Positions 11,180-43,321 of a stretch of DNA of 64,000 bases are shown here, one piece after another. A program made the translations under genes and the position numbers. The notes under the pieces were generated by a model, which was not told where the DNA came from, ran no database searches, and saw only the letters and a program-made list of their open reading frames with translations. This DNA is from Myxococcota bacterium (GTDB lineage: Bacteria > Myxococcota_A > SURF-8), in assembly GCA_965140415.1 (NCBI GenBank), contig OZ223209.1:2912001-2976000 (forward strand). The letters are read 5' to 3'. Every line of letters begins with the position of its first letter. Positions within the stretch are counted from its first letter, which is position 1.

Positions 11180-11260
11180 AATACAAAGGGATCGTCTGTA
11201 TATTGGTGGCAGGTTGTACGGCTTTTCTGGCAACCATTAACTGAAGAAAGGTACGTTCGC

Positions 11261-12169: not shown

Positions 12170-12170
12170 C

Positions 12171-13382: not shown

Positions 13383-13387
13383 GCAAA

Positions 13388-14596: not shown

Positions 14597-14605
14597 AGAA
14601 TCACC

Positions 14606-15955
14606 GTGGATCTGATCGTCACCAATGGAATCTGCTATACGCCGGAAGGGCCGAAACAAGCCGATGTCGGTGTTCTGGAAGGACGCATTGCGGCGATTGG
14701 TGAACTTCGATCCGAATATCCAAGTGCAAAAGTTTATGATGCTCAGGGACGCGCCGTGCTGCCGGGCTTGATCGATATGCATGTCCATGCGGACGATCGC
14801 ATCGGTGAATTCAACTTGGCGGACAACTGGGTAACGGTGTCATCTGCTGCAATAAAAACGGGAGTGACCAGTCAACTGGGATTTTGTACGCAGCACAACG
14901 CAGAAACTATGCAACAGGGATTGTCGCGTTGCTACGGTAGAGCGTTGGGGCGCAGCTATTGTGACGTTGGGTTTCACGTTACACCAACAGGGTATACCGA
15001 TTCGATGTGGCAGGAGATGCGACATCTCGGATCGGATGGCTTGCATACACTGAAATTGTATACCACCTACAAGCAGGCCGGATTGTATGTGGACGAGCAT
15101 CGAATGGAGAAAGTGTTTTTATTAGCCGCCCGAATGGGATGGACCGTGCTCGTTCATTGTGAAGATGAAGATGTCTTGCAAAAAAGCAAAAAGACTCCAA
15201 CTGATGCATCCAATGCGATGCTTCACGCTGTAATCAGACCGGAGGAGGCTGAGGTGGCTGCCGTGCGAAAGGTGGTGCGACTGGCCAATCGCACGGAAAC
15301 TCGGGTTCACATCGTTCACGTTTCCAGCCCGGAGAGTGTCAACGCGATCCGAGAGTGGGACACCCATGAACTGGTTACCTGTGAAACGGCGATGCAGTAC
15401 GTGTTGCTTAATGAAAAACGCTTGGAAGGCGCGAGAGGACATCGTTACTTGTGTACTCCTCCCTTACGTAGCGAGCAGAGCCGATCGAGCTTGTTGCAGA
15501 TCGTAAAATCCGGCGGGATTGATTGCCTGGCTACGGATCATTGTGCGTTTAGTCCGCAAGACAAGGATCTGCACAAGGATGATTTCCAGCGCGTACCAAA
15601 TGGCCTGGCTGGCGCCGGTTCGCTTGTTCCTCTTGCTGTGGAATTGCTGGTCGGTGGAGATCCGTCAGGTTGGTCAGACGTCGTGCGGATGTTATCGGAG
15701 AATCCTGCAAGAGTATGCGGATTGTATCCAAAGAAAGGTTGCTTGGCTGTCGGGTCGGATGCAGACCTAGTCGTAGTGGATGTGCAGGGGGCAAGTCGTC
15801 CTGTGATAAGCAGTGAGCAGGATTGCTACGAACCATATGGCGATTTCGAATCACGCTTGAACGTGCGATTGGCACTGCTGCGTGGCCGGGATGTGGTGAG
15901 AAATAACCGCTTGGTACGGCCTACCGTGCCGACGGGAGGGAATGTATGGGACTAG
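14606..15955 (+). CDS. Dihydropyrimidinase/hydantoinase-family cyclic amidohydrolase (HyuA-like)
   Basis: PGLIDMHVH, LKLYTTY (putative carboxylated Lys), VHCED, HIVHVS, ATDHC and KKGCLAVGSDADLV. Confidence 0.85.
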   Translation: MDLIVTNGICYTPEGPKQADVGVLEGRIAAIGELRSEYPSAKVYDAQGRAVLPGLIDMHVHADDRIGEFNLADNWVTVSSAAIKTGVTSQLGFCTQHNAETMQQGLSRCYGRALGRSYCDVGFHVTPTGYTDSMWQEMRHLGSDGLHTLKLYTTYKQAGLYVDEHRMEKVFLLAARMGWTVLVHCEDEDVLQKSKKTPTDASNAMLHAVIRPEEAEVAAVRKVVRLANRTETRVHIVHVSSPESVNAIREWDTHELVTCETAMQYVLLNEKRLEGARGHRYLCTPPLRSEQSRSSLLQIVKSGGIDCLATDHCAFSPQDKDLHKDDFQRVPNGLAGAGSLVPLAVELLVGGDPSGWSDVVRMLSENPARVCGLYPKKGCLAVGSDADLVVVDVQGASRPVISSEQDCYEPYGDFESRLNVRLALLRGRDVVRNNRLVRPTVPTGGNVWD

Positions 15956-18201
15956 AAAATCAGAAAGCCTGGCGTAACGATGCGTATGCAAAAGTGACCG
16001 GGCAGGCGCGATATACAGACGATTACAAGATGCATGGACAGTTGTATGCCGCGCCGGTCTATACAGAGTATGTTCACGCACGAATTCGTTCATTCGACAC
16101 CTCCGATGCGAGCAATGCAGCCGGGGTGGTGAAAGTCATTACTGCAAAGGATATTCCAGGAACGCATCGCTTTGGCCAGATTCGTCAGGACTATCGCCTG
16201 TTGTGCGACAAGACGATTCGTATGCATGGCGACGTGGTCGCTTTGGTTGTGGCAGAGACTCGAAAAGATGCGGAAGCGGCGGCGCTACTAGTAAAAGTGG
16301 ATGCTGAACCATTACCCATTCTCACAGATCCTGAACTGGCTATGTTGCCGGATGCGGTGCAGATTCATCCAGAATACGAAAACAACATTACCAACCACCA
16401 CAAAATCCGTCGAGGAGAAGTACAGTCAGGGTTCGATTCTTCAGATGTGATTATTGAACAGGAATTTCAAACCCAGCGTATCGAGCATGGATATCTGGAA
16501 CCGGAAGCGGCCTTGTGCTTTCCACGACCGGATGGCGTTATGGAAGTGATGGGCAGTATGCAGCATCCTTTCAGTACGCGGCGTTTCGTGGCGGCGATCC
16601 TTGGAGTTACACTTTCAGAGGTAGAGGTGCGTTCCGTTTCGATGGGCGGAGGATTCGGCGGCAAGGATGATACGGCGGCCATTGTCTGCGCCCGCTGTGC
16701 GTTAGCGGCAAAGCTATGCGGTAAGCCGGTCAAACTGATTTACAAGCGTGAATGGTCGATGCGCGAGAGTTATAAACGGCATCCCTATAACGTGCAGTAC
16801 AAAATGGGATTATCGAAAGACGGGTTGATTCAAGCTGTCAAGGTTCGAGCCGTCGCCGATGCCGGAGCGTACTGCTCGGTCACGCCCTGGGTGACATGGC
16901 GCTCCACGGTGCAGTGTTGCGGACCTTACAAGGTTCCTAACGTCCATTGCGATGTGTTCGGCGTTTATACGAATAACGTATTCACGGGGGCCATGCGCGG
17001 TTTCGGTTCTCCGCAGATGAACTACTGCGTGGAGCAGATGATCGAAATGGCGGCGGAAAAGCTGGGCATAGGTGGAATCGAGTTGCGACGGAAAAACATG
17101 CTGCATCAGGGAGATGTTACCATTACCGAGCAGATTCTCGATGGTCACACTGTGAGCCTGGAACCGGTTATGGACAAGGTGCTAAAAGCTATCGATTACG
17201 ATAGAAAATTCACTCAGTGTACCTTTGGCAAGGCTCAGGATGGCGAAGATTACGGCATCGGACTGGCCATCAGCTATCGTGGAATGAGCCTGGGTGCGGA
17301 AGGTAAGGACTTCAACGGTGCGGTGATCAACGTGCAGTTCGATGGCTCGATTCTGCTGGAAGTGGCGATCCACGAAAACGGGCAGGGAGCCGAGTCGGCC
17401 ATGGTGCTGTTGCTGGCTGAAAAACTGGGCGTGAAACGGGAGCGTATCCGATATAAGCAAGGCTCCACCAGCGCTATCCCGGATGGTGGAACGACCGTCG
17501 CTTCGCGTGGAACGCTGATGGGCGGAGGTGCGGTGGTGCATGCTGCCGAGAACCTGAAAAAGAAGATGGCGCGAGTGCTGGCTGATGTATTGGATTGCAC
17601 GCCAGACCAGGTCCGTTTTGAAGAAGATGAAATTAAAGGACCGAATAAGGTTTTGAGTTTTGAGGATGCAATCACACAGATGTTCTTGAAGCAGGAGTAC
17701 CCCTATGCCTTCGGTTCATTCAAAGCACCGCGTGTCAGTTGGGAAGAGGAAAAAGGCGTTGGTAATGCCTATTTTACTTGGGTGTATGGTTGCCAGGCTG
17801 TGGAACTGACTGTGAATAGAGATACAGGAAAAGTGACATTGTTGAATGCCGTTGCCGCTCATGATGCAGGCAAGGTTGTCAATCCCCCCATGCTGCTGGG
17901 ACAGTATTATGGCGGCATGGCCATGGGTGTAGGCTACGCACTAAAGGAGGAAGTCACTTCGGAAGAGGGGAGAGTGACCTCGCTGAATTTCAATCGTTAC
18001 CATATTCCGCGTTCTACCGATCTGCCGGAAATGCAGGGAATCATTGTAGAGAATCGTGATGAGCAATCTCCTTCGGGAGCGAAGGGGATCGGTGAGCCGG
18101 TGACGGAACTAATGGCTCCGGCGATCGCAAACGCCTTGTATCATGCCACCGGAAGGCGACAGACTACGCTGCCGATGCGTAGCAAGGAGAGTCGCCAATG
18201 A
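15946..18201 (+). CDS. Xanthine dehydrogenase family molybdopterin-binding subunit
   Basis: KVTGQARYTDD, HGYLEPEA, GGGFGGKDD, AMRGFGSPQ, TVASRG and AKGIGEP. Confidence 0.93.
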   Translation: MGLENQKAWRNDAYAKVTGQARYTDDYKMHGQLYAAPVYTEYVHARIRSFDTSDASNAAGVVKVITAKDIPGTHRFGQIRQDYRLLCDKTIRMHGDVVALVVAETRKDAEAAALLVKVDAEPLPILTDPELAMLPDAVQIHPEYENNITNHHKIRRGEVQSGFDSSDVIIEQEFQTQRIEHGYLEPEAALCFPRPDGVMEVMGSMQHPFSTRRFVAAILGVTLSEVEVRSVSMGGGFGGKDDTAAIVCARCALAAKLCGKPVKLIYKREWSMRESYKRHPYNVQYKMGLSKDGLIQAVKVRAVADAGAYCSVTPWVTWRSTVQCCGPYKVPNVHCDVFGVYTNNVFTGAMRGFGSPQMNYCVEQMIEMAAEKLGIGGIELRRKNMLHQGDVTITEQILDGHTVSLEPVMDKVLKAIDYDRKFTQCTFGKAQDGEDYGIGLAISYRGMSLGAEGKDFNGAVINVQFDGSILLEVAIHENGQGAESAMVLLLAEKLGVKRERIRYKQGSTSAIPDGGTTVASRGTLMGGGAVVHAAENLKKKMARVLADVLDCTPDQVRFEEDEIKGPNKVLSFEDAITQMFLKQEYPYAFGSFKAPRVSWEEEKGVGNAYFTWVYGCQAVELTVNRDTGKVTLLNAVAAHDAGKVVNPPMLLGQYYGGMAMGVGYALKEEVTSEEGRVTSLNFNRYHIPRSTDLPEMQGIIVENRDEQSPSGAKGIGEPVTELMAPAIANALYHATGRRQTTLPMRSKESRQ

Positions 18202-18671
18202 AGACAATCGTAAACCGTAAGGAAATTGTAATCAGTGATCAATTGCGGGAAATGAACCTGCTGGAGTTTCTGCGCGAAGAACTGGACCTGACCGGATCGA
18301 AAAACGGTTGCGACGGTTCCGGCATTTGCGGTGCTTGCACGGTGTTGCTCGATGGAAAAGCGGTTAAGTCCTGTAAAAAAATTGTGGGAGACATCGAGGG
18401 CAAAGAGCTTTTGACGATAGAGGGTATGCAGGATGAACAAGGAAATCTGCATCCACTGCAACAGGCATTTATCGATTGCGGCGCGATTCAATGCGGATTC
18501 TGTACGCCCGGCATGGTGATGCGCTCCTATGGATTGTTATTGAAAAACCCGAAACCCGGTCAGGAAGAAGTGCGGCGGGCATTGGGAACGAATTTGTGCC
18601 GTTGCACAGGATATCAACAAATCATCGATGCGGTCATATCCGCTGCGGAAATTCTTTCTAAAAAGAAATGA
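18198..18671 (+). CDS. Xanthine dehydrogenase family 2Fe-2S subunit
   Basis: GSKNGCDGSGICGACTV, QCGFCTPG and NLCRCTGY; overlaps the Mo-subunit stop (ATGA). Confidence 0.93.
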   Translation: MKTIVNRKEIVISDQLREMNLLEFLREELDLTGSKNGCDGSGICGACTVLLDGKAVKSCKKIVGDIEGKELLTIEGMQDEQGNLHPLQQAFIDCGAIQCGFCTPGMVMRSYGLLLKNPKPGQEEVRRALGTNLCRCTGYQQIIDAVISAAEILSKKK

Positions 18672-18694
18672 ACATCAAGACGGTTAGGTGAACC

Positions 18695-19891
18695 ATGACG
18701 ACAGAAACCATAAAAAAGAACCTGAAGCGCTTGCAGAAACTTTCAACGGATATGCAGCATAAGGATTTTCTGCTGACCTGGGAAAAAAGCGACGAAGAAA
18801 TCAAAGCCGTTTGTCATACGGCGCAGTGTCTCAAGGAAATGAACAAGCAGGGCTTGAGTTTCCGTATGTTCGATACCGGACTGGCGATTTCGATTTTCAG
18901 GGACAACAGCACGCGTACGCGCTTCAGTTTCGCTTCGGCGGCAAATGCATTGGGCTTGACGGTTTCCGATCTCGATGAAAAGAAATCTCAAATCGCCCAC
19001 GGAGAAACCGTTCGTGAAACGGCCAACATGATTTCTTTCATGACCGAGGCCATCGGTATTCGCGATGACATGTATCTGGGAGAAGGCAATGCGTACATGC
19101 GTGAAGTCGGACAGGCGGTGCAGGAAGGTTTCGATAAAGGCGTGTTGCATCGACGCCCAACCTTGGTGAACCTGCAATGTGACATCGATCACCCGACACA
19201 AACACTTGCCGATTTGATGAAATTGCGGAATTACTTTGGATCATTCGAAGAGATGAAGGGCAAGCGTATCGCCATGACTTGGGCGTATTCGCCGAGCTAT
19301 GGAAAGCCGCTGTCCGTGCCGCAAGGGATTATTGGTTTGATGACCCGGCTTGGAATGGATGTGGTTCTTGCGCACCCGGAAGGTTACGATCTCATTCCAG
19401 AAGTGGAAGAGATTGCACGAAACAACGCGGCACGCTCTGCGGGATCGTTCAGGAAAGTAACGACAATGGAGGAAGCTTTCGAAGGCGCTTATGTCGTCTA
19501 TCCGAAAAGCTGGGCTCCGTATCGCATCATGCAACAGCGTACACCCTTGTTGAAAAATGGCGATCATGAGGGCTTGAAACAACTTGAAAAAACGTGTTTG
19601 GAAAATAACGCCGAATTCATGAATTGGGAATGTGACGAAAAGAAGATGGCTAAAACGCATGACGGCAATGCCTTGTACATGCATTGCCTGCCTGCGGATA
19701 TCAGTGGTGTAAGCTGTAAGCAGGGAGAAGTGAGTGCCGAAGTCTTTGAAAAATACAGGCTGGAAACTTATCACGAGGCAAGCTATAAGCCTTATGTCAT
19801 TGCAGCCATGATTCTACTCGCAAAGGTTTCCGATCCTGCGGAAGCGATTCAAAACTTGCTGGAGCGAAACAGTATTAACCAGTTCGTGTAA
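18695..19891 (+). CDS. ygeW: Knotted carbamoyltransferase YgeW
   Basis: FRDNSTRTRFSF, HGETVRETANMISF, NLQCDIDHPTQ, WAYSPSYGKPLSVPQG and YMHCLPADI. Confidence 0.95.
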   Translation: MTTETIKKNLKRLQKLSTDMQHKDFLLTWEKSDEEIKAVCHTAQCLKEMNKQGLSFRMFDTGLAISIFRDNSTRTRFSFASAANALGLTVSDLDEKKSQIAHGETVRETANMISFMTEAIGIRDDMYLGEGNAYMREVGQAVQEGFDKGVLHRRPTLVNLQCDIDHPTQTLADLMKLRNYFGSFEEMKGKRIAMTWAYSPSYGKPLSVPQGIIGLMTRLGMDVVLAHPEGYDLIPEVEEIARNNAARSAGSFRKVTTMEEAFEGAYVVYPKSWAPYRIMQQRTPLLKNGDHEGLKQLEKTCLENNAEFMNWECDEKKMAKTHDGNALYMHCLPADISGVSCKQGEVSAEVFEKYRLETYHEASYKPYVIAAMILLAKVSDPAEAIQNLLERNSINQFV

Positions 19892-19923
19892 AAACAAACA
19901 ACTTTAAGAAGGCGTAGCGATCC

Positions 19924-21414
19924 ATGACATCATTTCAATCACGCATCATCGATCACATTGATCCGGAAACCGTTTCCAATAATGCCCAGCGCTGTCGCGA
20001 GCGGGGAATCGTCATTCCTACTTTCAAGCAACTGAGAAATCCGGAGACGATTCCGCAGTGCATCACGCGCCGCCTGCCCGAAATCGGTTTATGGGATGTC
20101 AATCCGCTCAATCTCTTTCGCATCACTTGGAAAAACGATGTCGCCAGCGGCTTGTTTGGTGGCGTCAACTATCTCGAGATCCCATCCGAAATTAGCGGAG
20201 TAAAGGCGCGCATCATCGGGTTGACCGGCAAGTTCTTTCCAACCGGTGCTCACAAAGTAGGGGCGGCTTTCGGTTGTCTCGTGCCACGTCTGGTAAGTGG
20301 TGCTTTCGATCCGACTAAGCATAAGGCCGTATGGCCATCGACTGGAAATTACTGCCGGGGTGGCGCCTATGATTGTGCGCTGTTGGCTTGTACTGCGGTG
20401 GCGATATTGCCGGAAGAGATGTCGCAGGAACGTTTCAATTGGTTGCGCGAAATCGGATCGGAAGTGATTGCTACGCCGGGCTGCGAATCCAACGTAAAGG
20501 AAATCTACGATAAATGCTGGGAGTTGCGTGACGATCCCGACAATATCATCTTCAACCAGTTCGATGAATTCGGAAATCCGATTTTCCATTACTCAGTTAC
20601 CGGTCCGGCAATCGAAGAAGTATTTAACGAATTGGATGGGGATGCATTGCGTCTGGCTGCGTATGTTTCAGCAACCGGTTCGGCAGGGACCATTGCCGCC
20701 GGTGATTATCTTAAGTCGCTTTACCCAACGGCAAAGACCATCGCTGCCGAGGCGTTGCAATGTCCGACATTGCTGATGAATGGTTTCGGCGGACATCGCA
20801 TCGAAGGCATTGGCGACAAGCATGTCCCCTGGGTGCATAACGCTCGTTCTCTGGATGCGGTCGCGGCAATTGACGACAACGACTGCATGAAAATAATGCG
20901 CTTATTCAATGAAGATGTGGGTCTGGAACTGTTGAAATCGCAAGGATTAGATGACGAAAAAGCGGAGAAGCTGTCTCTGCTTGGTATCAGCAGTATTGGA
21001 AACCTGTTGGCTGCAATAAAGACCGCCAAGTATTACGAAATGGATGAAAACGATGTGATCTTTACCGTTTTCACCGATTCGATGGAACTGTACGGGTCAA
21101 GAATCGAGGAAATGCGGGCGGAGCAAGGCAGCTATGAAACGATTCAGGCTGCACAGGACTTCTCCGGCTCGGTGATTGCACAGGGAATCGACTATTTTAA
21201 GGAACTGGGCTATTACGACCGCAAAGCCGTTCATAACCTTAAATATTATACCTGGGTGGAGCAGCAAGGGAAGACCTACGAAGAAATCCTTGAATTATGG
21301 AAACCTGAATTCTGGCGTTCCATGTTCGAGGATGAAGTGGCTGTATTCGATCGCATGATCGACGAGTTCAATCGCGAAGTCGGATTGCTGGATACATGGA
21401 AAAGGGAAGGGTAA
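19924..21414 (+). CDS. PLP-dependent enzyme, fold type II (cysteine synthase/TrpB superfamily), function unknown
   Basis: FPTGAHKVGA (PLP lysine), WPSTGNYCRGG, TGSAGT and HRIEGIGDKHVP; last gene of the operon. Confidence 0.8.
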   Translation: MTSFQSRIIDHIDPETVSNNAQRCRERGIVIPTFKQLRNPETIPQCITRRLPEIGLWDVNPLNLFRITWKNDVASGLFGGVNYLEIPSEISGVKARIIGLTGKFFPTGAHKVGAAFGCLVPRLVSGAFDPTKHKAVWPSTGNYCRGGAYDCALLACTAVAILPEEMSQERFNWLREIGSEVIATPGCESNVKEIYDKCWELRDDPDNIIFNQFDEFGNPIFHYSVTGPAIEEVFNELDGDALRLAAYVSATGSAGTIAAGDYLKSLYPTAKTIAAEALQCPTLLMNGFGGHRIEGIGDKHVPWVHNARSLDAVAAIDDNDCMKIMRLFNEDVGLELLKSQGLDDEKAEKLSLLGISSIGNLLAAIKTAKYYEMDENDVIFTVFTDSMELYGSRIEEMRAEQGSYETIQAAQDFSGSVIAQGIDYFKELGYYDRKAVHNLKYYTWVEQQGKTYEEILELWKPEFWRSMFEDEVAVFDRMIDEFNREVGLLDTWKREG

Positions 21415-21417
21415 CGG

Positions 21418-22350
21418 TTATTCCGATGTGAGAATTCGCTTGATGATCTCTTCTGCATCGCGGTGTTGCGGGCGTAATTCAGATGCATCGTAAGCTCCCC
21501 CGAGATCCCACAGACCGGCGCAGATGTCCGATAAACTACATAGATCGCAGATTGGTGCTTTCTGGTAACGCCAGCCCTGCTCGCGGTAATCGCCACGGTC
21601 ATCCAGAAAATGAATGATGCGTTCATCGCCTTTGACGATGGCGCGGGTTTCCGTGCTGGCGTAGGCGAATTCTCCCATGTAACATAACGGCACCTTTTCC
21701 AAACGGAATGTCCGACCGCTTCCTTCTAGAAATTCCATGCAGGCTAAAAGTGAGCTTTCGCATTGAGCCAAAGTAGGGATGGTCTCCGGGTGATCGGCCA
21801 CACGGTTCATGTACGGGTCTAGGAAAGTCCAACTGAAATGGTGCACGAAAGGAAAGTTGTCGCAAATCCAGCGCGCCGTCTGATCCAGATGATCGGCATT
21901 CTGGGCGCAGATCGTTTGGTTGATATCCACGGCTGTTGATGTGTTTCGAAGCAAAAACAGGCTGCGAACGATATTGGATAGCGAATCGTGATTTCCGGTC
22001 AGTTGCGCCTGGACAGAAGCATGATGACTGTGAATCGAAAGATGGATGTGCCGTAGACCGGCATGCAATAGCGAGTTCAAATAAGCGGGGTCGGCTGTTT
22101 TCTGTCCGTTGGTGATCACACGGCAGGGCATATCTTTTTCATGGCAATACGCAATCAACTCGGCCAGGTAGGGAAATAAGGTCGGTTCACCACCTGTTAG
22201 AATAACACCGTCGTAGCCCTGGCGGATGTGCACGTCGATCATGTCCATGGCTTGTTGAACGGTCAATTCCTTGCCGGTTTCCGGATTCGAACAAAACCGG
22301 CAATTCTGATTGCATTGCCGGTTGACTTGTATATATCCCAGGTTGGCCAT
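21418..22350 (-). CDS. Radical SAM protein with C-terminal CxxCx5C motif
   Basis: CNQNCRFC, LTGGEPT, ITNG, VPLCYM and the C-terminal CDLCSLSDICAG. Confidence 0.9.
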   Translation of the reverse strand: MANLGYIQVNRQCNQNCRFCSNPETGKELTVQQAMDMIDVHIRQGYDGVILTGGEPTLFPYLAELIAYCHEKDMPCRVITNGQKTADPAYLNSLLHAGLRHIHLSIHSHHASVQAQLTGNHDSLSNIVRSLFLLRNTSTAVDINQTICAQNADHLDQTARWICDNFPFVHHFSWTFLDPYMNRVADHPETIPTLAQCESSLLACMEFLEGSGRTFRLEKVPLCYMGEFAYASTETRAIVKGDERIIHFLDDRGDYREQGWRYQKAPICDLCSLSDICAGLWDLGGAYDASELRPQHRDAEEIIKRILTSE

Positions 22351-22527
22351 CGATCGCCTTTTCGATTCATGCTCAGCTCTTCAACGCAGCGGATTGTACA
22401 CCAAGCTGTATCAAAAAAACATGTTCAAATACAAATCGGAATGATTTCTTAAAAGATGAAAAAGCATCCCGATCCATAGCAGGCTATGGTATATACGAAT
22501 TCGAAACGTACTAGTTGGAGGTAGGGA

Positions 22528-25500
22528 ATGTCCCCGAATGCATGGTCACATCCTGTTTATCGAAAGCGCTTGCGTAGCTATGGGCTACGTTTTGCGTTGA
22601 CGGATGCATTCGGTACGCGATTGGAGCCGGAAGAGATCGAGAGTAATCTACGCGAATTTGGGCTGGAGGATTTTCAGATCGTGCTGTCAGATGACGGCTG
22701 GACGCTGCATCATCCAGGATTGACCGCCAAATGCGATGCCGTTTCGTTTTCAGCAACGTGGTTACGGGAAAAACTCTCTCCGTTATTACCTGTGTACTTA
22801 CAGGCAGAAATGTTTCCAAACGAGAACGAGTTTAAAAGTGTTTTTATCGATCAACGTTCTCACGAATTTGAAACGATAGCGCTCGCAGAAGTTCGACAGT
22901 CAGAAGCATTTTCGAATGAAATCATTGAAGAACTGTTGTTGAGAATATTTGAGAAATCGGCTGCTTTTAACAAACCGCAAAAATGCTCCCTCAAAATTCA
23001 AGATGGTAATGAGTGGCAACATCGCTTGAATTCCTTGCAAAAAGTTATAAATGAAGCCTTTCCCAAGATGGGCTTAAATCCAAAGAATGTTTCATTGCGG
23101 ATTCGCATGAGAAACGGTCGAATCGAGACTGTTGAAAACAACCATGTAAATCGCGCTAAAAAGGACAAGAGCGTTTCCTTCCTTTTGTGGGAAAAACCGG
23201 AAACAGAAGAAAACGGACAAGCCACCCTCGTTTTTGCCATGTCGCAGTCTGAGGCTGCCATCACATGGCTTTGTAAACAGTTCGACGAAGGTTTGGAAGA
23301 GCAAGCTCCTAAGCATCCGATCTTGTTGGATGGACTGCAATGGGAGATCGCTCGCAAACCTACGATCGCCCGAATCGGTGGAAAATCGTTAGCAGGTGCG
23401 ATCTGTCTTGATGCATCCTCCTGCGATGCCTGCAAATTATGCGAGCGCGCCTGTCCGATGCAGTGCTTGACAATCGATGATGGAAAACTGGAAATCGATC
23501 GAGAACGCTGTTTGCAATGTTATGATTGTATCGAGGTCTGCCCGGCCAGTGCTTTTCGGCCAATCTACAATCAAGCCAGTGCGATGTGGAGTGAACGGGT
23601 GATGGAACGCCCCGGCTGGCTGGGACGTTTGGCTGGCCTACCGGGACCGGCTTTCCCTGCCCCATATCCGCCGTCTTATCTTTTACCGAAAACAAAAAGT
23701 TCTCGAAGCGTGATTCTTGGCCTGGCGATTACGACAATGCAGGAACATGCGGCGGCCTTGATCATCGATGGTGAGGTGGTTGGGGCTATCGAGGAAGAAC
23801 GCATCAATCGGCTGCGTCACTATGGTTGGACGCCCACCGGACGAGACGGCGTAACCCTGGCCGTCGATCCGACGATCTGCCTGGAAGAGGCATTGTGTCG
23901 CAGGTCGATTCGCGGATTGCTGTCCGAGCATGGACTCACCCTGGATGATGTGGACTGCTTTGCATTGAATGGCATTCCTGCCAAATATCGCCGCAGTTAT
24001 TCTCTGACGGATCAACATCGGCCCCCACAGGTGTTGGATTCGGGAAGGATCGTTTGCATTCCTCATCATCTCGCGCATGCCGCATCCGCGTTTAGAATGT
24101 CGGGAATGGAAGAGGCGTGGGTGTTGACTGTCGATGGACGCGGGGACCGCGAAACGGCGGCGCTATTTCATGGTGAACGTGCAACGCTAAGCAGAAAAGC
24201 GGATTGGCTTGCGTTGACGGACCGCAGTATTGGCAGTGTATACGAAAACGCCACACGCCTTTTAGGATTTGGAACGCATGGGCAGGGCAGTTTGATGGCC
24301 CTGGCAGCCTTTGGTTCGACAACCGTGGATGTTAGCGAGTTTTTACGCGCGGATGATGATGGACGTCTCCACGTTCAAGAAAGCGGTCTTCAGAAGAAGT
24401 TTGACAATTTGAAACAAGAGGAAACACAAGAGATCAATCAAGAACAGATGGATCTTGCCTCCTCCATTCAGCAGGCACTGGAGGACGTTGTGTTTTCCAT
24501 GTTGCGCGAAAACGGTGTTGAAAACGGTGCTAAGGGCTTGTGCCTGGCTGGTGGCGTCGCTTTGAACTGTCGTCTGAATCAGCGCCTGCTCGAAGAATTC
24601 TCTCCAGTCGAGTTGTACGTGCAACCGGCGGCAAATGATGCAGGAACGGCCCTGGGCGCGGCGCTTGAAGCATGGAGTCGAAAGACAGATGAGCCGGAGA
24701 ACGTTTGTTACGGTCACAGCTATTGGGGACCGGCATTCGATGAAGAGGAGATGAATTCCGTGTTGGCCAGATACGGCTTGGACTATCGCCGTAGCGACAG
24801 ACTGGAACAGGAGTGTGCCGAACTGCTGGAGCAGGGCCAGGTGTTGTGCTGGTTCCAGGGACGTATGGAGTTCGGTCCGCGTGCACTGGGCGCTCGCAGC
24901 ATTCTTGCCGATCCCAGAAAAGCTGAGTTGAAAGATCGTGTGAACCGCATCAAAACAAGGGAATCCTGGCGGCCCTTCGGTCCCAGCGTTTTAGCGGGTC
25001 ATGAAAACGACTGGTTCGAGCCCGGCCTGGACAGCAACTACATGCTTTTCACCTTGAAAGTTAATGAAGAAAAGAGAGATAGGATTCCGGCGGTGATGCA
25101 TATCGATGGCAGCACACGTCCCCAGGTGGTTCATCGTGAAACGAATGAGCGCTACTTCGATCTGATCGATGCCTTCTTCGCACGCAGCGGCGTGCCGATG
25201 GTTTTGAACACCTCTTTCAACCGACGCGGTGAGCCGATCGTCTGCACGCCACAGGATGCCGTAGACTGTTTCCTGGATACGGACGCAGATGTGCTGGCGC
25301 TTGGACCATTCATCGCTACACGAGCGGAGGCGCAACATTCTGCAACTGAAAAAGATGATTGCGGCGAATTGGAAACGCTACGGGCGTATCCGACTGATCG
25401 GAGACTGTTGCTACGTGTCACCACGGATTGCGATAACGACTGTTCTTTCTGTACGCTAAGGGATTTGCGTGGTCACAGGGAAAGATCGTTGTTGCAGGTG

Positions 25501-26289
25501 GAAAACTCGTTACAGCAGGGACGCCAAACTGGTTGTGGTGAACTGGTGATCATGCGTGGAGAAGCCACACAGAATCCGAACTTGATCAGTTTGGTGCGTA
25601 TGGCCCGAAACATGGGCTATCGGAAAGTACAGTTGCAAACCAACGGACGACGCCTGGCGGAACCGTCCTATCGTCTTCGATTGCTGGATTCGGGTGTCGA
25701 TACCTTTGAGATCGGCCTGGCTGCTGCAAATGAAAAATTGCATGACAATCTGGTAGGACGTGCTGGGGCGTTTCGTGAAACGGCACTTGGTATACGGGCG
25801 CTCATTCGGGCGGGTGCCGATGTATTGATTACGATTCCGGTGCTAAGAAAAAATCGTCATGAACTTTCGCACATTGTTGCGCTTGTTCATAAGCTTGGTG
25901 TAAGCAGAGTCCAGTTTAATTTCCCGCGTCCAGTAGAGATCCCCCGGCAGGTCGTTACGAAACCGCTCTCACGCCTTTCTGTGGTTTCTCCCTTTGTACG
26001 GGAAGCCGTCAAGTTGGCGCAGAGCCTGGGATTGTTTGTCTCCACAGAGGCGTTTCCCTTTTGTCATCTCGATGAAAGCCTGCATGCAACGCCGGATGCC
26101 ACCGAAGACTGGCGTCGCTATCGGGTGGACGATCTCCACCTGTTGCACGACTCCTTGAAAGAAGAAAGAAAACGTGCCAGATTGCAAGCGGAACCTTGTA
26201 AAGAATGTCGATTGCAGGAGGCCTGTCCTCGTACCTGGGCGATTTATCTTGAACTGTTCGGAAGCGGAGAATTGATCCCGTTTCGCTGA
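22528..26289 (+). CDS. Fusion of unknown N-domain, 2x[4Fe-4S] ferredoxin, NodU/CmcH carbamoyltransferase and radical SAM domain
   Basis: Ferredoxin: CDACKLCERACP and CLQCYDCIEVCP. Carbamoyltransferase: EEERINR, HHLAHA, VDGRG, LAGGVALN, GRMEFGPRALGARSILADP and NTSFN. Radical SAM: CDNDCSFC, QTNGRRL and CKECRLQEAC. Confidence 0.9.
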   Translation: MSPNAWSHPVYRKRLRSYGLRFALTDAFGTRLEPEEIESNLREFGLEDFQIVLSDDGWTLHHPGLTAKCDAVSFSATWLREKLSPLLPVYLQAEMFPNENEFKSVFIDQRSHEFETIALAEVRQSEAFSNEIIEELLLRIFEKSAAFNKPQKCSLKIQDGNEWQHRLNSLQKVINEAFPKMGLNPKNVSLRIRMRNGRIETVENNHVNRAKKDKSVSFLLWEKPETEENGQATLVFAMSQSEAAITWLCKQFDEGLEEQAPKHPILLDGLQWEIARKPTIARIGGKSLAGAICLDASSCDACKLCERACPMQCLTIDDGKLEIDRERCLQCYDCIEVCPASAFRPIYNQASAMWSERVMERPGWLGRLAGLPGPAFPAPYPPSYLLPKTKSSRSVILGLAITTMQEHAAALIIDGEVVGAIEEERINRLRHYGWTPTGRDGVTLAVDPTICLEEALCRRSIRGLLSEHGLTLDDVDCFALNGIPAKYRRSYSLTDQHRPPQVLDSGRIVCIPHHLAHAASAFRMSGMEEAWVLTVDGRGDRETAALFHGERATLSRKADWLALTDRSIGSVYENATRLLGFGTHGQGSLMALAAFGSTTVDVSEFLRADDDGRLHVQESGLQKKFDNLKQEETQEINQEQMDLASSIQQALEDVVFSMLRENGVENGAKGLCLAGGVALNCRLNQRLLEEFSPVELYVQPAANDAGTALGAALEAWSRKTDEPENVCYGHSYWGPAFDEEEMNSVLARYGLDYRRSDRLEQECAELLEQGQVLCWFQGRMEFGPRALGARSILADPRKAELKDRVNRIKTRESWRPFGPSVLAGHENDWFEPGLDSNYMLFTLKVNEEKRDRIPAVMHIDGSTRPQVVHRETNERYFDLIDAFFARSGVPMVLNTSFNRRGEPIVCTPQDAVDCFLDTDADVLALGPFIATRAEAQHSATEKDDCGELETLRAYPTDRRLLLRVTTDCDNDCSFCTLRDLRGHRERSLLQVENSLQQGRQTGCGELVIMRGEATQNPNLISLVRMARNMGYRKVQLQTNGRRLAEPSYRLRLLDSGVDTFEIGLAAANEKLHDNLVGRAGAFRETALGIRALIRAGADVLITIPVLRKNRHELSHIVALVHKLGVSRVQFNFPRPVEIPRQVVTKPLSRLSVVSPFVREAVKLAQSLGLFVSTEAFPFCHLDESLHATPDATEDWRRYRVDDLHLLHDSLKEERKRARLQAEPCKECRLQEACPRTWAIYLELFGSGELIPFR

Positions 26290-26321
26290 CCGTCGCATTT
26301 TCTGAATCATCAAGAATCGAT

Positions 26322-28385
26322 TTACTCGATCCGTTCCGGTATGACATAAAGTGCATCCGCCATTGCAGATGTCCCGACTTCGGAAAGTTCGCTGGATACG
26401 ATCAGGCGGACGGAGGCTGCGCCTGCCGGAATTCGGGTTCGGTTTTGCAAGGGTCGCCACTCGGCATCGAAAAGTTCTCCGCCCGGAATCGTTCCCCACA
26501 GGCTGCCGTCGCCATCGTAGATCTCCAATGCAAGTGACAAAGTGTTGGCAGCATCTACCGTTCTAAACCATCCCCCCCAATGCAAGGCCATTTGATCGCT
26601 TGCGAGTTCGTCCGAATAGGATGACAAATCGACAACCTGTGCAAGAAGGGATGTTCCTGCTTCACCAGCCTCCACACCAAATGCACCACCACCGTAAAAG
26701 AATCGTTCCCCGGAGAACGAACAAGGCGGGAAGAAGATAAAGCCGTATGGAACCATGCTCGGTAACGACTGCCAGCCGGTGGTTTCCCAGTGAGTTGATT
26801 CGATATCTTCCGCACCGGGATTTTCCAGAAGGTTGCCTCCCAATCGTTGATGCGACGTTTCGAGCAGATCTATTCCGAGATAGAGTTCGTCGAAGGCGGC
26901 GTCATTGCCTGCTCCATTGTACGCTTTATGATGGGCAATCCAGCTCAACCGGGCTTTTCGCGTGTTCGGAGGTAGTTCAAGAAAATCGGCGTATGGATGC
27001 CAGTTCAATGTGTCGCGACGTTTGGAATGAAGTTGCAGCAGCACTTGGCCGTTCTCATCCAGTGCTTCCGTAACGATTTCCGCTTCATCATTGGGTTTTG
27101 GAATGTTGCTGCGAATGTCGCCTTCTTCATCGATGGTGAAACCGGTTCGCATATAGCCGGAAACAAGCAGGCGGGCTTTCATCGCGTCGATGTCCGCAGC
27201 CCATTCGGATAAATCAACGATTTGCTCCCCTGTCGAAAAACGGGTTTCGTCATCCGGCGCTGTGGAAAATCCGGTAAAGAATGCCGATCCCTTATATGGG
27301 GTTTGATTTTCGCGTTCGGCAACGGAAACCGCTTCTCCGCTTAGTGTCCAGCCGGTCGTGCCATCTTCCGCACCGGGGTTGATCAGCAGATTGGCTGGAC
27401 GGTTGTCTACTGTTGGAAAATCGGCAAAAAGATCACGTTGGGCTTCGAATGGATCGCTGGAAAAAGGGCTGTCCGGATCGGAAGGATAGAGCAACTCCGC
27501 CCACACCGGTTTATGATCGGAAAGAACCGGCGATAAGTTAACGACATCTGCATCAAGTACCAGGGCCGGGAGTTCTTTTCTGAACCAGATCAAATCGATC
27601 AACTGCGAACCCTCGGTATCGTCGAAACCGGTGGAAGGCCAGGAGATACGCTCGCCGGGATACCAACCTATTTTAGTAAAGGCGTCCGTGGCGACTTCTT
27701 CCATAATTTCAACTTGACTGCTGTAGTGTTCATCGTTGAAGTCACCCACTAAAACCATATGCTTGGTCGTATCTTGTTTCAGATGCTCGTCTACAAACTC
27801 GCGAAACTGGAGATCCCCCTCCGCATTCCAGCCTAGGTGAGCCACGTAAAAGGAGAACATCACACCGGACACCTCGGAATGTGCATGGAGGAAACTGCGT
27901 CCGACGGACAGTGGAACCAGTTCGGTATCGTTCAATTCCGTTTTGGAAAGCAGAGCGATACCGGAACCGTAAGAATAGGGAAATCCACCGGCCTGGGCGA
28001 TGGGGGCAACGAAGCTTTCCGGGCATTCCTGTAGTCCGACCATGTCAAGATTCAGGGTTTTAAGCATATTGCCAATCGCTTCCGCATCGGCAAAATTGCC
28101 GCCGTAAATATTATAGCTAGCAACTCGCAGGCGGATTCCTTCGGGTAGTTCCGGTGAAAAAGGAGTTTCCGGCTCTAGAATCAGGTCTTCAACCTGAACG
28201 CTTGGATCGATAAGGACCGGAGAGTTATCTAAATCGCCATCCTCATTTTCCGACGTGTCGGAATCGCTGTCTCCTAAGTCATTAGAATCAGTGGAAGAAT
28301 CTGTGCATGAAAAAGCAAGGGAAATCAGGAGGATCGAAATGATTGTATGTAGGAAGAATGCATGCTTCACGGGTTTTCCTTTCAA
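26322..28385 (-). CDS. Lipoprotein with an endonuclease/exonuclease/phosphatase (EEP) domain and two galactose-binding-like (FBA/CBM-like) domains
   Basis: Lipobox AFSC; EEP motifs SYNI, LQE, GDFN, IDLI and SDHKPV; two repeats starting NLLxNPGAED. Confidence 0.8.
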   Translation of the reverse strand: MKGKPVKHAFFLHTIISILLISLAFSCTDSSTDSNDLGDSDSDTSENEDGDLDNSPVLIDPSVQVEDLILEPETPFSPELPEGIRLRVASYNIYGGNFADAEAIGNMLKTLNLDMVGLQECPESFVAPIAQAGGFPYSYGSGIALLSKTELNDTELVPLSVGRSFLHAHSEVSGVMFSFYVAHLGWNAEGDLQFREFVDEHLKQDTTKHMVLVGDFNDEHYSSQVEIMEEVATDAFTKIGWYPGERISWPSTGFDDTEGSQLIDLIWFRKELPALVLDADVVNLSPVLSDHKPVWAELLYPSDPDSPFSSDPFEAQRDLFADFPTVDNRPANLLINPGAEDGTTGWTLSGEAVSVAERENQTPYKGSAFFTGFSTAPDDETRFSTGEQIVDLSEWAADIDAMKARLLVSGYMRTGFTIDEEGDIRSNIPKPNDEAEIVTEALDENGQVLLQLHSKRRDTLNWHPYADFLELPPNTRKARLSWIAHHKAYNGAGNDAAFDELYLGIDLLETSHQRLGGNLLENPGAEDIESTHWETTGWQSLPSMVPYGFIFFPPCSFSGERFFYGGGAFGVEAGEAGTSLLAQVVDLSSYSDELASDQMALHWGGWFRTVDAANTLSLALEIYDGDGSLWGTIPGGELFDAEWRPLQNRTRIPAGAASVRLIVSSELSEVGTSAMADALYVIPERIE

Positions 28386-28643
28386 ACGGAAAAACTAATA
28401 AAATCTTAACGAAAGAATAGTGCGCTTCATGATCCCAGGCAAGGAAATGATTCTTGGCTATAGTGAAATCGAAACCAATTGCTTACAGAAATTACGTCTT
28501 TAAGCTGGACAATACAAAATGAAATGCAAGTTGTGCTTGCCTGTATTGAGGTTGACAACCAAGCGGAATCGCGGTAGATTTTAGTCAGATAGAAACACGG
28601 AAAAGTCTGAATTGTCATGGAATACTTAAGCAGGAGGAGTGGC

Positions 28644-31600
28644 ATGAGTCGCCTTACACGGATGGACTGGCTTCTTTTTTGTATGGCAGTAAGCCTGCTG
28701 TTTGTTTTCGTTGCCTGCTCGGATGATGGCAGCGCCGATGATGTCGCCCCTGACGGTGATAGAGAACAGAATCCTATCGTGGATGGAGATTATTCCTGCC
28801 CGGAAGGATATTCGTGTTCTCCCTGTACAAGTGATGTCGATTGCGATCCGGGAATGCTTTGCGATCTTGAGGACGGAATTTGCAAACCCTCCGGTATACC
28901 CGGTGATGAGGACGAGGAAACTCCAGACGGAGACATCATTGTAGATGGAGATCTGGCCGATAGTGACAAACTGCAAGACACGGACGGGCGAAGAATCGTT
29001 GTCGAGCCAACCTCCGTGGATTTCGGCGCGGTGCAATGGGGACGATCGAGCACTAAAGAGGTTGTCGTCAGTAATGAAGACGCCGCTACTTTGGATTTGG
29101 AAATTCAGGATATGCAATTCGTTACCGAAGGCGCACTTGATTTCTCCTTCGAAATCTGGAACCCGGATTCCGGTGTGGTTTCGGATCTTCCTATTTCTCT
29201 CGCTCCAGGAAAAAGCTTAATCGTCAAACTGACTTACAGCCCGACAGATGAAATCGACGATGCAGGCGAACAGTTGTTGATATCGAGTAATGACGGAGAT
29301 CGTCCCATCGTTCGCGTGACGATGAACCCGCAGTACAAAGGCGAGGCCAAGCTGGTTGTGTCTCCGGATCCAATTGCGTTTGGTGACATCCCGATATACA
29401 GTTCCAGCATCATCGATGTGACGATCAGCAATCAACCGGTGGATGAAGATACCAACCGCGTGCTGAAAATCACCAATCTGTCTCTTCAGAACGGGCAGTA
29501 TGTCGATGCATCTCTGGTAATGACTCCCACTAGCACTCCCAGCAGCGATCAGCCGGTTTTCTTGATCCCCGGCGACTCGATCTCTGTGAAAATGGAATAT
29601 TCACCTGCGGTTATGGGAACCTTGCTGAATGGATTGTTCCTGACATGTAACGATCCCAATGCCGGTCCGGTCGTAGAGATTCCCATCACCGGAAAGGGTG
29701 TGCAAGCCGACTTGGCTGTGATTCCCACTCCGATCGACTTCGGCGCACGAAGAATTGGGGAAACCCACTTCTTGTCTGTGGAAATCGCGAACGTGGGAAA
29801 TGAAAGTTATCCCATCGAAGCCGTGTCCCTGGTCGATGAAAATCCCTTGTTCGCACTGGCTTCGATAACGCCAGACTTGCCTTGGCTGCTGCTGCCAAGC
29901 GAAACAGCCACAATCAATGTGAGCTTCTCGCCGGAAGAGCTGACGCAGGTTTTCGATAAATTGTGGTTACAAGGTGGCGTAAACGACGAGGGTGAAAGAA
30001 AACCGGACTACTTTATCGATGTCAAGGGGTCCGGTTCGCAAGCCTTGATTCGGTTGGAACCGGCGGACGTGATCGATTTCGGCAATGTGCAGCATGGTCA
30101 AACGGAGGTTCAGCAACTTCGAGTCTATAGCGAGGGAAATGAGTCGCTAACGATCTCCAGCTTGCAGATGAGCACGGATGGCAGCGCCGATTTCGCCTTT
30201 ACGGATGTTCCCGGAATTTACGAATCCATTCCGGTGGGGCAGTCGCGCTTGATCGATTTTACCTATACGCCCGATGAGGGCGGACTGCGCAGTTCCTGCA
30301 AGATCTTTTCGAATGCCGGCAACGCCGCAGAAGATGGCTCCGTCACTCTACAATTGCAAGGCAGCAGTAACGATCCCATTTTCTTCGCACAGCCCGACAG
30401 CATCGAATTCGACTCCATTCCGCAGGGAGACCGAGACACCGTTCAGGTAATGGTCAAGAATATCGGCAATGGAAGTCTTACGATCTACTCGGCAGGCATC
30501 GATATCGGCTCCAGCCCTTATTACGGTGTCGAAAATTTCCAGGTCGGTGGAAATGCCGTCTCATTGCCCTTGGAATTGGGACAAAGCCAAACGATGACAT
30601 TCGATGCCTTTTACGAGCCTTACGGACCGGGGGAAGCCACCGGGGCGCTGTCGATTGTCCATAATGACTACGATGAGTTCGGCCCTGGAGATCTGGACCG
30701 AACGGAACATACGATTACTTTACATGCTTCTGGTCCGGCCAATACCCGACCGGTGGCGGTGCTTCGCGCCAATTATTCCGAAGAGGATATTTCGCTGCCG
30801 AAAGATGCGGTGGTGATACTTGATGGTGTGGAAAGCTACGATGACGACGAAGGCGACACGATCGCAGATTATGACTTCACGATCGACACCGCACCTGCCG
30901 GTCATAATACGTTGGAAGGCACGGGCGACAGCCGCCATGTCATTCTGAATGCTGCGGGAGACTGGATCTTTTCGCTTCGAGTGCAGGATAGCAATGGCGA
31001 ATGGAGTTCCAGCGATACCTTGCGTGTGACGGTGACGTCCAAACCTGTCGCGGTGATTCGCGCCAATACTGTTACTGAATTATTGGAAGATGCACGCGCC
31101 GGTGCCGAGTTGTATCTGGATACGGTCGGGAGTGTCGACCCGGATGGCGGAAATATTATGGATTGGGAATTTCGCATCGATTCGCTACCTGCCGGTGCAA
31201 CTTCAAGTTTAACCGGCAGCGCCGGTTCTCGTTCGATTTTCCCGGATCGGATCGGCACCTGGACCTTCATGGCTCGCGTTCAGGATGATGAGGAAGAATG
31301 GTCGGATTGGGCGACGGTGGTCGTGGACGTCATCCGTCCACAGACGATAGATATCGTCATGCAGGGGGTAAATACCTGCTGGGGCGATCTGATCGGTTAC
31401 CGCCTGTTCTTTGAAAGCAAGGATGGCGAAAATTGCGGACCGAGTGAATGTTTGTGGGGGCCGCGTCATTCCGGTAATTGCAACAACTTAGGGAACAACG
31501 AAGGGGACTCGGAAATCATTTGGGACTACTCCGAGTTATTGAACAGTTATCCTTCCGGTATGGATGGCGAGTACCACATTCGCGTGGAGCGGGTCGGTTT

Positions 31601-31781
31601 CAGTATCCTTTTGGGAGAGCATGTCACAGTTGCGCTTTATGTCGATGGTGAAGAGCAGGTCTGGTGGGATCTGGAGCATGATTTCGGCTCGTCCGTAGGT
31701 AACAACTGGGATATTTACCTCTTCCGTCATGATGGTCTATGGGAAATTCCGCACAATTGTGTGCCGGGAGGATGTCTCTGA
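28644..31781 (+). CDS. Surface lipoprotein with five choice-of-anchor-D/ASH-like Ig domains and two PKD-like domains
   Basis: AGGAGG RBS before the ATG at 28644; lipobox FVAC; CxxDxDC module; five xDFGxV-type domains; two PVAVxRA...WxF..RVQD PKD-like domains; distinct C-terminal domain. Confidence 0.8.
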   Translation: MSRLTRMDWLLFCMAVSLLFVFVACSDDGSADDVAPDGDREQNPIVDGDYSCPEGYSCSPCTSDVDCDPGMLCDLEDGICKPSGIPGDEDEETPDGDIIVDGDLADSDKLQDTDGRRIVVEPTSVDFGAVQWGRSSTKEVVVSNEDAATLDLEIQDMQFVTEGALDFSFEIWNPDSGVVSDLPISLAPGKSLIVKLTYSPTDEIDDAGEQLLISSNDGDRPIVRVTMNPQYKGEAKLVVSPDPIAFGDIPIYSSSIIDVTISNQPVDEDTNRVLKITNLSLQNGQYVDASLVMTPTSTPSSDQPVFLIPGDSISVKMEYSPAVMGTLLNGLFLTCNDPNAGPVVEIPITGKGVQADLAVIPTPIDFGARRIGETHFLSVEIANVGNESYPIEAVSLVDENPLFALASITPDLPWLLLPSETATINVSFSPEELTQVFDKLWLQGGVNDEGERKPDYFIDVKGSGSQALIRLEPADVIDFGNVQHGQTEVQQLRVYSEGNESLTISSLQMSTDGSADFAFTDVPGIYESIPVGQSRLIDFTYTPDEGGLRSSCKIFSNAGNAAEDGSVTLQLQGSSNDPIFFAQPDSIEFDSIPQGDRDTVQVMVKNIGNGSLTIYSAGIDIGSSPYYGVENFQVGGNAVSLPLELGQSQTMTFDAFYEPYGPGEATGALSIVHNDYDEFGPGDLDRTEHTITLHASGPANTRPVAVLRANYSEEDISLPKDAVVILDGVESYDDDEGDTIADYDFTIDTAPAGHNTLEGTGDSRHVILNAAGDWIFSLRVQDSNGEWSSSDTLRVTVTSKPVAVIRANTVTELLEDARAGAELYLDTVGSVDPDGGNIMDWEFRIDSLPAGATSSLTGSAGSRSIFPDRIGTWTFMARVQDDEEEWSDWATVVVDVIRPQTIDIVMQGVNTCWGDLIGYRLFFESKDGENCGPSECLWGPRHSGNCNNLGNNEGDSEIIWDYSELLNSYPSGMDGEYHIRVERVGFSILLGEHVTVALYVDGEEQVWWDLEHDFGSSVGNNWDIYLFRHDGLWEIPHNCVPGGCL

Positions 31782-43240: not shown

Positions 43241-43321
43241 GAAGTATAGGACTTGTCACATTAAACAACTCTGAATGATCGTCATAATTACTAGCCCCCT
43301 TGGTTGTGGAGGTTTATTACC

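Follow-up and report, generated by a model that had tools for sequence, protein, structure and literature searches.

In a 64,000-nt stretch of a Myxococcota bacterium genome (hereafter the window; C1:2912001-2976000 of genome G000, which is 93.7% complete), one open reading frame (ORF) joins a ferredoxin, a NodU/TobZ-type carbamoyltransferase and a radical S-adenosylmethionine (SAM) domain, and a stand-alone radical SAM gene, here called R1, lies next to it in divergent orientation. The carbamoyltransferase subfamily and the architecture are real and uncharacterised, and they belong to a catalogued but unstudied system. The explanation we favor, tentatively and with a little less than even confidence, is that R1 and the fusion together serve a His-Xaa-Ser (Hxs) system of the HxsA4 type, whose genes are dispersed, as an optional tailoring module; the fusion would carbamoylate the core of the HxsA4 precursor and R1 would be an HxsC-type partner. 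This explanation draws on the domains found, on catalytic residues that are conserved, and on genes that occur in the same genomes or side by side.

The fusion ORF (22528-26289, plus strand) encodes 1253 aa and R1 (21418-22350, minus strand) encodes 310 aa. Their starts are separated by an AT-rich spacer of 177 bp (22351-22527) with GGAGG ahead of the fusion start. The spacer is presumed to be the promoter region, although no sigma-70-like site was found inside it, and no common motif was found among 15 Hxs-related upstream regions including this one. The fusion begins with a region of ~290 aa (22528-23397), which is a folded alpha/beta region of no catalogued family. It is followed by a 2x[4Fe-4S] ferredoxin domain (23404-23556; C299, 302, 305, 309, 328, 331, 334 and 338), a class III NodU/TobZ-type carbamoyltransferase with a Kae1-like and then a YrdC-like domain (23707-25320), and an HxsC-like radical SAM domain, here called RF (25390-26286), with a C968/972/975 triad and MRGEA, PFC and CxxCx5C motifs, all on the plus strand. 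Pfam assigned a Fer4 dicluster to residues 293-343, Carbam_trans_N to 508-713 (127 bits), Carbam_trans_C to 764-931 (232 bits) and Radical_SAM to 964-1118 of the fusion, and Radical_SAM to residues 8-160 of R1. The PF04055 scores of R1 and RF are 68 and 73.6 bits (cut-off 29.5). An earlier note, made from the letters of this DNA, had described an uninterrupted ORF with these four parts and a divergent radical SAM gene 177 bp away; the ORF call, the Pfam matches and the coordinates (22350 to 22528) agree with it.

A homologue search with the fusion as query (proteins of 689-2193 residues, 8000 scored) gave 810 matches at E <= 1e-10. Conservation counts out of 120 given below refer to the best 120 of the 810, query included, which are 37-53% identical; where a source is named, they come mostly from Myxococcota, Elusimicrobiota or Deltaproteobacteria assemblies. 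The N-domain, the eight ferredoxin Cys and the radical SAM domain occur in one chain in 97/120, and 69 of these 97 also retain the SAM-binding triad. The fusion is a conserved family and therefore not an assembly artefact, a point on which the earlier note had wanted a check. One contig of run X1 also covers 21000-26700 without difference (X1 is possibly the source of this assembly and hence not independent). A plasmid search found no full-length fusion match and one weak ferredoxin match. The earlier note did not recognise the architecture from any characterised system; in a search of mostly open-access literature, we found no paper describing it or its context.

The class III assignment is based on PF02543 (127 bits), PF16861 (232 bits), TobZ (3ven, E 3e-81) and GdmN (E 3e-76). 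The iron ligands H513, H517, D536 and D704 are invariant in 120/120, as are K809, R811 and S896 of the YrdC-like adenylation site, which align to TobZ. In TobZ, the equivalents of these three residues belong to the adenylation site. The iron ligand set of GdmN is also two His and two Asp (PMC9633730). The active-site loop is altered. At M404-Q405-E406-H407 (23737-23748, plus strand), where generic relatives have x-His-Asp-Ser, residue 405 is never His; of the 120 sequences, 110 have Gln here, six have Ala, two have Met and two have a gap. E406 is present in 115/120 and H407, a family-specific His two residues past Q405, in 110/120.

Members of this carbamoyltransferase family were collected from several scans. 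A scan of genome contigs gave 80 loci, two of them from the family; most of the others were generic carbamoyltransferases and were used as controls. A first metagenome scan confirmed no family gene, and of 66 matches from a metagenome motif scan, 14 were family genes. In a comparison of 24 family with 78 generic loci (three rows gapped at the anchor and the misaligned row L023 excluded), the canonical His position was occupied by His in 0/24 versus 65/78. The family loop reads Q/M/A-E/N/H-H/N against His-Asp in generic relatives, and it is one residue longer than in TobZ, GdmN and NovN. By FastTree, 39 family carbamoyltransferase domains form one clade (1.0) apart from 81 generic ones, as is partly expected from a family chosen by identity to the query. 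The fusion scores 162.7 bits on the NodU equivalog NF041651, below the cut-off of 1000. H27 in the active-site loop of GdmN is the general base and the H27N mutant is inactive (PMC9633730); equating H27 with the Q405 position is a matter of sequence register, not of structure. H407 may take over the role of the missing His. Judged from the alignment, we class the carbamoyltransferase as a distinct subfamily and not as a canonical O-transferase. The complete two-domain enzyme of the earlier note is thus present as to both domains and lacks the usual general-base His.

This loss raises the question of whether the Kae1-like transfer site is inactive or rerouted, so that the protein would only adenylate carbamoyl phosphate or act as a scaffold. 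The inactivity of GdmN H27N (PMC9633730), the lack of the general-base His throughout the family and the loss of the RF triad in several separate clades would all fit. We regard this as improbable, because little or no variation is seen at the four iron ligands and D536-G-R, and E406 and H407 are retained at the frequencies given above. Furthermore, 13/78 generic relatives also lack this His, and therefore other catalytic solutions exist.

R1 carries CxxxCxxC at C13/17/20, GGEP, PLC at 221-223 and CxxCx5C at C268/271/277. RF has PFC at 1177-1179 and CxxCx5C at C1224/1227/1233. The latter motif lies 33 residues (R1) and 20 residues (fusion) ahead of the C-terminus. The P(L/F)C and CxxCx5C motifs that the earlier note saw in both radical SAM domains are thus there, in two domains of 20% identity (HHalign 98.6%, 19%). 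In the G000 genome, 18 ORFs fit the motif pattern and 15, R1 and the fusion included, score at least 85 bits on profiles of both domains; the shared motifs are therefore no proof that R1 and the fusion are a pair. The best NCBIfam match of R1 is HxsC (TIGR03977) with 86.7 bits, and RF scores 67 on this model, both below its cut-off of 267.9. On HxsC4 (NF038332), R1 scores 55.6 and RF 93.5 bits (cut-off 500; best in the genome 168.9). No HxsC over cut-off was found in the genome (best 110 of 267.9 bits), and no NCBIfam model covers R1, RF or the carbamoyltransferase family.

All seven R1 Cys are invariant in 75/75 R1 sequences. In a phylum sample of 401 genomes, an R1 match (E <= 1e-30) is found in 136, mostly single-copy and 40-57% identical, and HxsB in 141. 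Since 131 genomes have both, R1 is a core member of the His-Xaa-Ser system. Recurring non-radical-SAM neighbors in 47 R1-centred loci are HxsD (17), a membrane protein (8), HxsD-like (7) and aKG-HExxH hydroxylase (5). The window R1 is a second genomic copy. The other copy in the genome is 46% identical and lies with hxsD and a membrane protein at C1:4692040-4696275. That membrane protein (388 aa, C1:4695109-4696272, L140:9109-10272), of the kind seen beside R1 in 8 of the 47 loci, follows the second R1 and is a candidate leader peptidase; it looks like a prepilin-type peptidase and has no Pfam match. In a quick tree with SH-aLRT (Shimodaira-Hasegawa-like approximate likelihood ratio test) support, the window R1 falls in a clade of nine rows (support 98), seven of them labelled carbamoyltransferase-adjacent, apart from the other R1 of the genome. 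This clade holds copies of the L001-type lineage and carbamoyltransferase-adjacent second copies from the window's own family. The R1 of a pair in genome G283 is from a different lineage in the same tree.

HxsC-like domains fused to tailoring domains are a pattern of which the window fusion is one case. Others occur at C1:1248439-1250292 (L131) and L002:11620-18005, with methyltransferase, GNAT plus BFD, and DUF362 plus ferredoxin parts. At C1:4883688-4890401 (L142) there are four radical SAM genes, three with B12-binding domains and one with three radical SAM domains (935 aa).

The G000 genome encodes HxsB (558.8 bits, cut-off 370), HxsD (67.4/50), an HxsD-like protein (70.5/41) and two HxsA4 precursors (63.8 and 68.2/55). 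Genes for the HxsD-like protein, HxsB, HxsA4 and another radical SAM protein follow each other in this order at C1:3575098-3578174 (this hxsA4 spans C1:3576066-3576470), and the second hxsA4 is at C1:963744-964148. Both precursors have a leader and a core of the type HCS-(HGS/HAS/HSS)n-W; the HxsA4 precursor is 134 aa of leader plus 16 triplets, with no Lys in the core. It scores 17.8 on the HxsA effector model TIGR03979, below the cut-off of 121.65, and no HxsA effector over cut-off was found in the genome. A three-triplet His-Xaa-Ser match in the window at ~15125-15463 lies on the opposite strand of an amidohydrolase gene and was rejected as a shadow frame.

Using fusion residues 1-471 as query, we found the carbamoyltransferase family in 20/401 genomes. 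All 20 have HxsB, against 141/401 overall (naive hypergeometric p 3e-10, overstated since kin genomes are not independent; the 20 genomes span 10 families). R1 is present in 17 and an NflK-like gene in 11 of the 20. HxsA4 exceeds its cut-off in 13/19 other family genomes and in G401 and G402, and in 0/20 R1-negative controls. Several loci link the genes directly. In L321 and L322, a stand-alone family carbamoyltransferase with neither ferredoxin nor RF lies directly 3' of hxsA4 on the same strand, at ~120 and 30 bp. In L001, from an Elusimicrobia assembly, R1 is divergent from the fusion, and after the fusion come one gene, hxsD, hxsB and hxsA4 in one locus. hxsD and hxsB adjoin the R1/fusion pair in L237 and L277, and in L124 a single protein comprises R1 and RF, next to a ferredoxin-carbamoyltransferase.

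The linkage of R1 to the family was tallied by hand for 45 family genes, 21 of which are full-type fusions. R1 is within 3 kb in 14 of the 45, absent in 29 and at a contig edge in 2. Of the 21 full-type fusions, 7 have a divergent R1, 1 has a tandem R1, 11 have none and 2 lie at a contig edge. The seven divergent pairs represent about three lineages (the window; G283; one clade of L001, L237, L239, L277 and L285). R1 and the fusion are thus partners often, not always: the linkage of the two genes, which the earlier note had wanted tested, is real and partial.

The family genes with no R1 within 3 kb in this tally count against a module built from R1 and the fusion, and several other findings weigh on the same side. 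Three of the 20 family genomes have no R1 match, and 6/19 have no HxsA4 over cut-off. No Hxs core gene was found in the 64-kb window, and the nearest hxsA4 precursor is ~0.64 Mb from the pair. L118 and L124 have glycosyltransferase or B12-radical SAM neighbors. With no Lys in the core and with GdmN H27N inactive (PMC9633730), simple O-transfer is not assured. The co-occurrence of the family with Hxs genes could also arise through another Hxs-linked pathway.

Most NodU/TobZ enzymes with a characterised function modify sugars or natural products, and the earlier note had proposed a self-contained two-gene machine for a peptide, glycan or lipid substrate. A glycan or lipid machine of this kind would agree with that preference, with the glycosyltransferases upstream in L124 and with an R1/fusion pair that stands alone within the window. 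However, around the 23 compared loci there is no recurrent gene family for glycans or lipids, HxsB is present in 20/20 family genomes and R1 is a core Hxs-linked gene, and we give this alternative only a small chance. The idea of a tailoring enzyme is kept and its peptide version has evidence; the pair is not self-contained, as it belongs to a genome-dispersed HxsA4-type system.

For the HxsA4 tailoring module, the following route may be proposed. In the GdmN/TobZ family, carbamoyl phosphate and ATP are converted to carbamoyl-AMP in the YrdC-like domain, and transfer of the carbamoyl group takes place at the Kae1-like iron site. By analogy, the YrdC-like domain of the fusion would form carbamoyl-AMP and its Kae1-like iron site would carry out the transfer. 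The acceptor would be the HCS-(HGS/HAS/HSS)n-W core of HxsA4 after the action of HxsB and HxsC-like enzymes. The acceptor may be a hydroxyl, either that of Ser or one introduced by an enzyme, or a nitrogen, with a predicted gain of +43.006 Da per site. No aKG-HExxH hydroxylase match was found in the G000 genome, and a beta-hydroxy-His acceptor made by that enzyme is therefore unsupported here. The Q-E-H loop would substitute for the canonical His base. R1 would be a functional stand-in for HxsC, a second copy inherited with the carbamoyltransferase. The weakest steps concern the remaining parts: RF might do a neighboring radical step or serve to dock the fusion to the maturation apparatus; the ferredoxin might relay electrons within the module.

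TobZ (3ven), GdmN (7vyj) and NovN (9s2t) share with the fusion the Kae1-like and YrdC-like domains, the two His and two Asp ligands and the adenylation Lys, Arg and Ser. They differ in that the fusion has Gln for His and carries the N-domain, the ferredoxin and the radical SAM domain. NodU-like enzymes acting on ribosomal peptides have precedents in StdF and crocagin (PMC13174530, PMC10070186). Crocagin CgnI is a NodU-like enzyme in a ribosomal peptide pathway (PMC10070186). StdF makes homocitrulline and is called the second carbamoyltransferase of RiPPs (peptides made by the ribosome and modified afterwards) after that of crocagin; these are the only two characterised ones according to PMC13174530. 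Like the window protein, StdF is a fusion, but it is fused to a peptidase and carbamoylates Lys, whereas the HxsA4 core has no Lys. Neither StdF nor CgnI has a ferredoxin or radical SAM domain.

The ferredoxin follows the carbamoyltransferase. Each of its eight Cys is present in 112-115 of 120, and the domain gives Z 8.5-9.6 to solved ferredoxin domains. The RF triad C968/972/975 is intact in 83/120, lost in 35, and the domain is absent in 2. The losses fall in seven separate tree groups, and an intact copy may exist alongside some of the triad-less ones, which would then be second paralogues. Of the 35 triad-less homologues, 32 retain the four tail Cys as well as all eight Cys of the ferredoxin, and the ferredoxin is also retained in family members without a fused radical SAM domain (L120-L124, L126). 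The inheritance of the ferredoxin thus tracks the carbamoyltransferase, which weakens the case for the ferredoxin reducing RF; the electron shuttle for the fused radical SAM domain that the earlier note proposed is doubtful. The GGE motif is intact in R1 (GGEP) and reads RGE in RF, with R in 111/120. A complex prediction of RF with R1 gave a score of 0.00, which weighs neither way.

The N-terminal ~290 aa had no Pfam or NCBIfam match, and the ESM Atlas gave no usable match for fusion residues 15-290. A structure model of residues 1-394 has a mean pLDDT (predicted local distance difference test) of 87.5, and a single-sequence fold of residues 1-471 has 34.5. Between residues 17-113 and the C-terminal subdomain of phenylacetate-CoA ligase there is a weak resemblance (3lax; Foldseek E 3.4e-3, Z 6.1, root mean square deviation 3.4, 88 aligned). 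The fold searches with the N-region were dominated by the ferredoxin, and residues ~120-265 were barely probed. No N-terminal domain common to the carbamoyltransferases, HxsC-like enzymes and NflD was found, apart from weak radical-SAM-like stretches in two members. The N-parts of two family carbamoyltransferases (L327:7832-10549 and L129:6412-10932) have a weak similarity (E ~1e-3) to a radical SAM barrel and may be what is left of such a domain.

The behavior of the ferredoxin bears on another explanation with the same system and substrate. The carbamoyl group may be only an intermediate, as in the logic of HypF and HypE, and ferredoxin- or radical-coupled chemistry would use it to form a cyanate/nitrile, a one-carbon bridge or a ring, with a net change other than +43 Da. 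The replacement of the His base throughout the family, a ferredoxin that tracks the carbamoyltransferase and not an active RF, and an RF that is fused or adjacent in most family loci point this way, as does the unexplained +C/-4H (+8 Da) change in the canonical HXS system (PMC13128918). We consider it unlikely, though the best of the alternatives to carbamoylation of the HxsA4 core: the stand-alone members of L321 and L322 adjoin hxsA4 with neither ferredoxin nor RF, and several family genomes (L311, L313, L315 and L317) have Ala for Cys at the beginning of the core. The Cys to Ala replacement also makes S-carbamoylation of the precursor less likely.

Nitrogenase-like genes are a further associate of the family. 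The G000 genome has two stand-alone nifD/K/H-like operons far from the window (C1:914734-919068, L156; C1:1056383-1060679, L157). Their D-like subunits have long N-terminal extensions, the NifH-like proteins have the P-loop and two bridging Cys, and the D and K subunits are highly divergent, with NCBIfam scores far below cut-off. No nifB match was found in this 93.7% complete genome. From these motifs the operons are probably Group VI; a tree of seven sequences (identities 36-55%), built without Group VI references, gave no resolution. Group VI loci carry radical SAM arrays (Meheust et al., bioRxiv 10.1101/765248), a tetrapyrrole substrate has been proposed for the group (bioRxiv 10.1101/765248; PMC13474568), and it has no characterised member according to the review (PMC13474568). 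In Elusimicrobia and Myxococcales, Group VI loci combine divergent nifHDK-like genes with arrays of radical SAM genes (bioRxiv 10.1101/765248), a neighborhood that loci of our family also show. The main texts of the preprint (bioRxiv 10.1101/765248) and the review (PMC13474568) contain no "carbamoyl" and no Hxs terms.

The fusion might therefore act on a small-molecule cofactor made together with this nitrogenase-like reductase, which is probably of Group VI and for which the published proposal is reduction of a tetrapyrrole. In favor of this, nflHDK-like genes flank family genes in L124, L235, L254, L270 and L285 (L235 and L254 seemingly from one organism), the G000 genome has its two operons and no nifB match, nitrogenase-like genes occur in 11/20 family genomes versus 58/401 overall (NflK-like match at E <= 1e-20, which may include other nitrogenase-like groups), and radical SAM arrays are described at Group VI loci (bioRxiv 10.1101/765248). 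We find it quite unlikely. No NflK-like match is present in 9/20 family genomes, and within Hxs genomes the association of the family with nitrogenase-like genes is not significant (11/9 versus 47/79, Fisher p=0.15), for which reason the fusion was also rejected as a specific marker of Group VI. HxsB or R1 is present in 58/58 genomes with an NflK-like match, and the nitrogenase-like operon itself therefore looks like an Hxs accessory. The carbamoyltransferase family and the nitrogenase-like operons each appear to be an accessory that the Hxs core may have or lack. A more far-reaching proposal is that the His-less carbamoyltransferase, the HxsC-like radical SAM array and the Group VI reductases are interchangeable accessories of one HxsA4 pathway, in which the fusion couples carbamoyl-AMP to new iron-sulfur/radical chemistry and Group VI reduces a peptide-derived structure, not a tetrapyrrole. 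We consider this possible but on balance doubtful.

In the canonical anti-phage HXS system, HxsB and HxsC cause an unexplained +8 Da change on the HxS repeat, and the system blocks phage DNA entry (Li et al. 2026, PMC13128918). HxsB, HxsD, HxsC-like radical SAM enzymes and a His-Xaa-Ser repeat substrate are found both there and in the G000 genome. The canonical system has four genes, which run hxsD-hxsB-hxsC-hxsA, and, as described, no carbamoyltransferase; the G000 genes are dispersed, with ~15 HxsC-like ORFs and neither HxsC nor HxsA effector over cut-off. Of the NCBIfam "type 4" set (HxsA4 NF038313, HxsC4 NF038332, HxsD-like NF038315), the HxsA4 and HxsD-like proteins of G000 pass and neither R1 nor RF is HxsC4. 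We found no paper in the literature searched naming HxsA4 or HxsC4.

Upstream of the pair, a purine-catabolism-type operon (9803-21414, plus strand) encodes amidohydrolases, an M20 peptidase, two pyridoxal phosphate enzymes, xanthine-dehydrogenase-like subunits and the knotted carbamoyltransferase YgeW, and ends 3 bp from the R1 stop. Downstream, a 687-aa lipoprotein-like protein (26322-28385, minus strand) has an endonuclease/exonuclease/phosphatase domain and two similar C-terminal repeats without a Pfam family. Links of the pair to the operon and to the phosphatase-like gene were rejected, as neither recurs in the 22 other loci. Three large exported proteins of 1054, 1714 and 2588 aa (28617-31781, 43304-48448 and 48608-56374, plus strand) carry repeated HYDIN/ASH-type Ig-like (choice-of-anchor D) domains.

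Apart from the N-terminal domain, the parts of the fusion are of known types; NCBIfam already lists the Hxs context, and the argument is genomic. In the literature searched, we found no RiPP-pathway carbamoyltransferase with a ferredoxin or radical SAM domain, or one lacking the catalytic His. The genomic evidence gives a concrete candidate substrate (HxsA4) and partner genes, so that the enzyme is directly assayable. The nitrogenase-like operons lie wholly inside Hxs-positive genomes (58/58); this gives the tetrapyrrole proposal a rival that can be put to the test.

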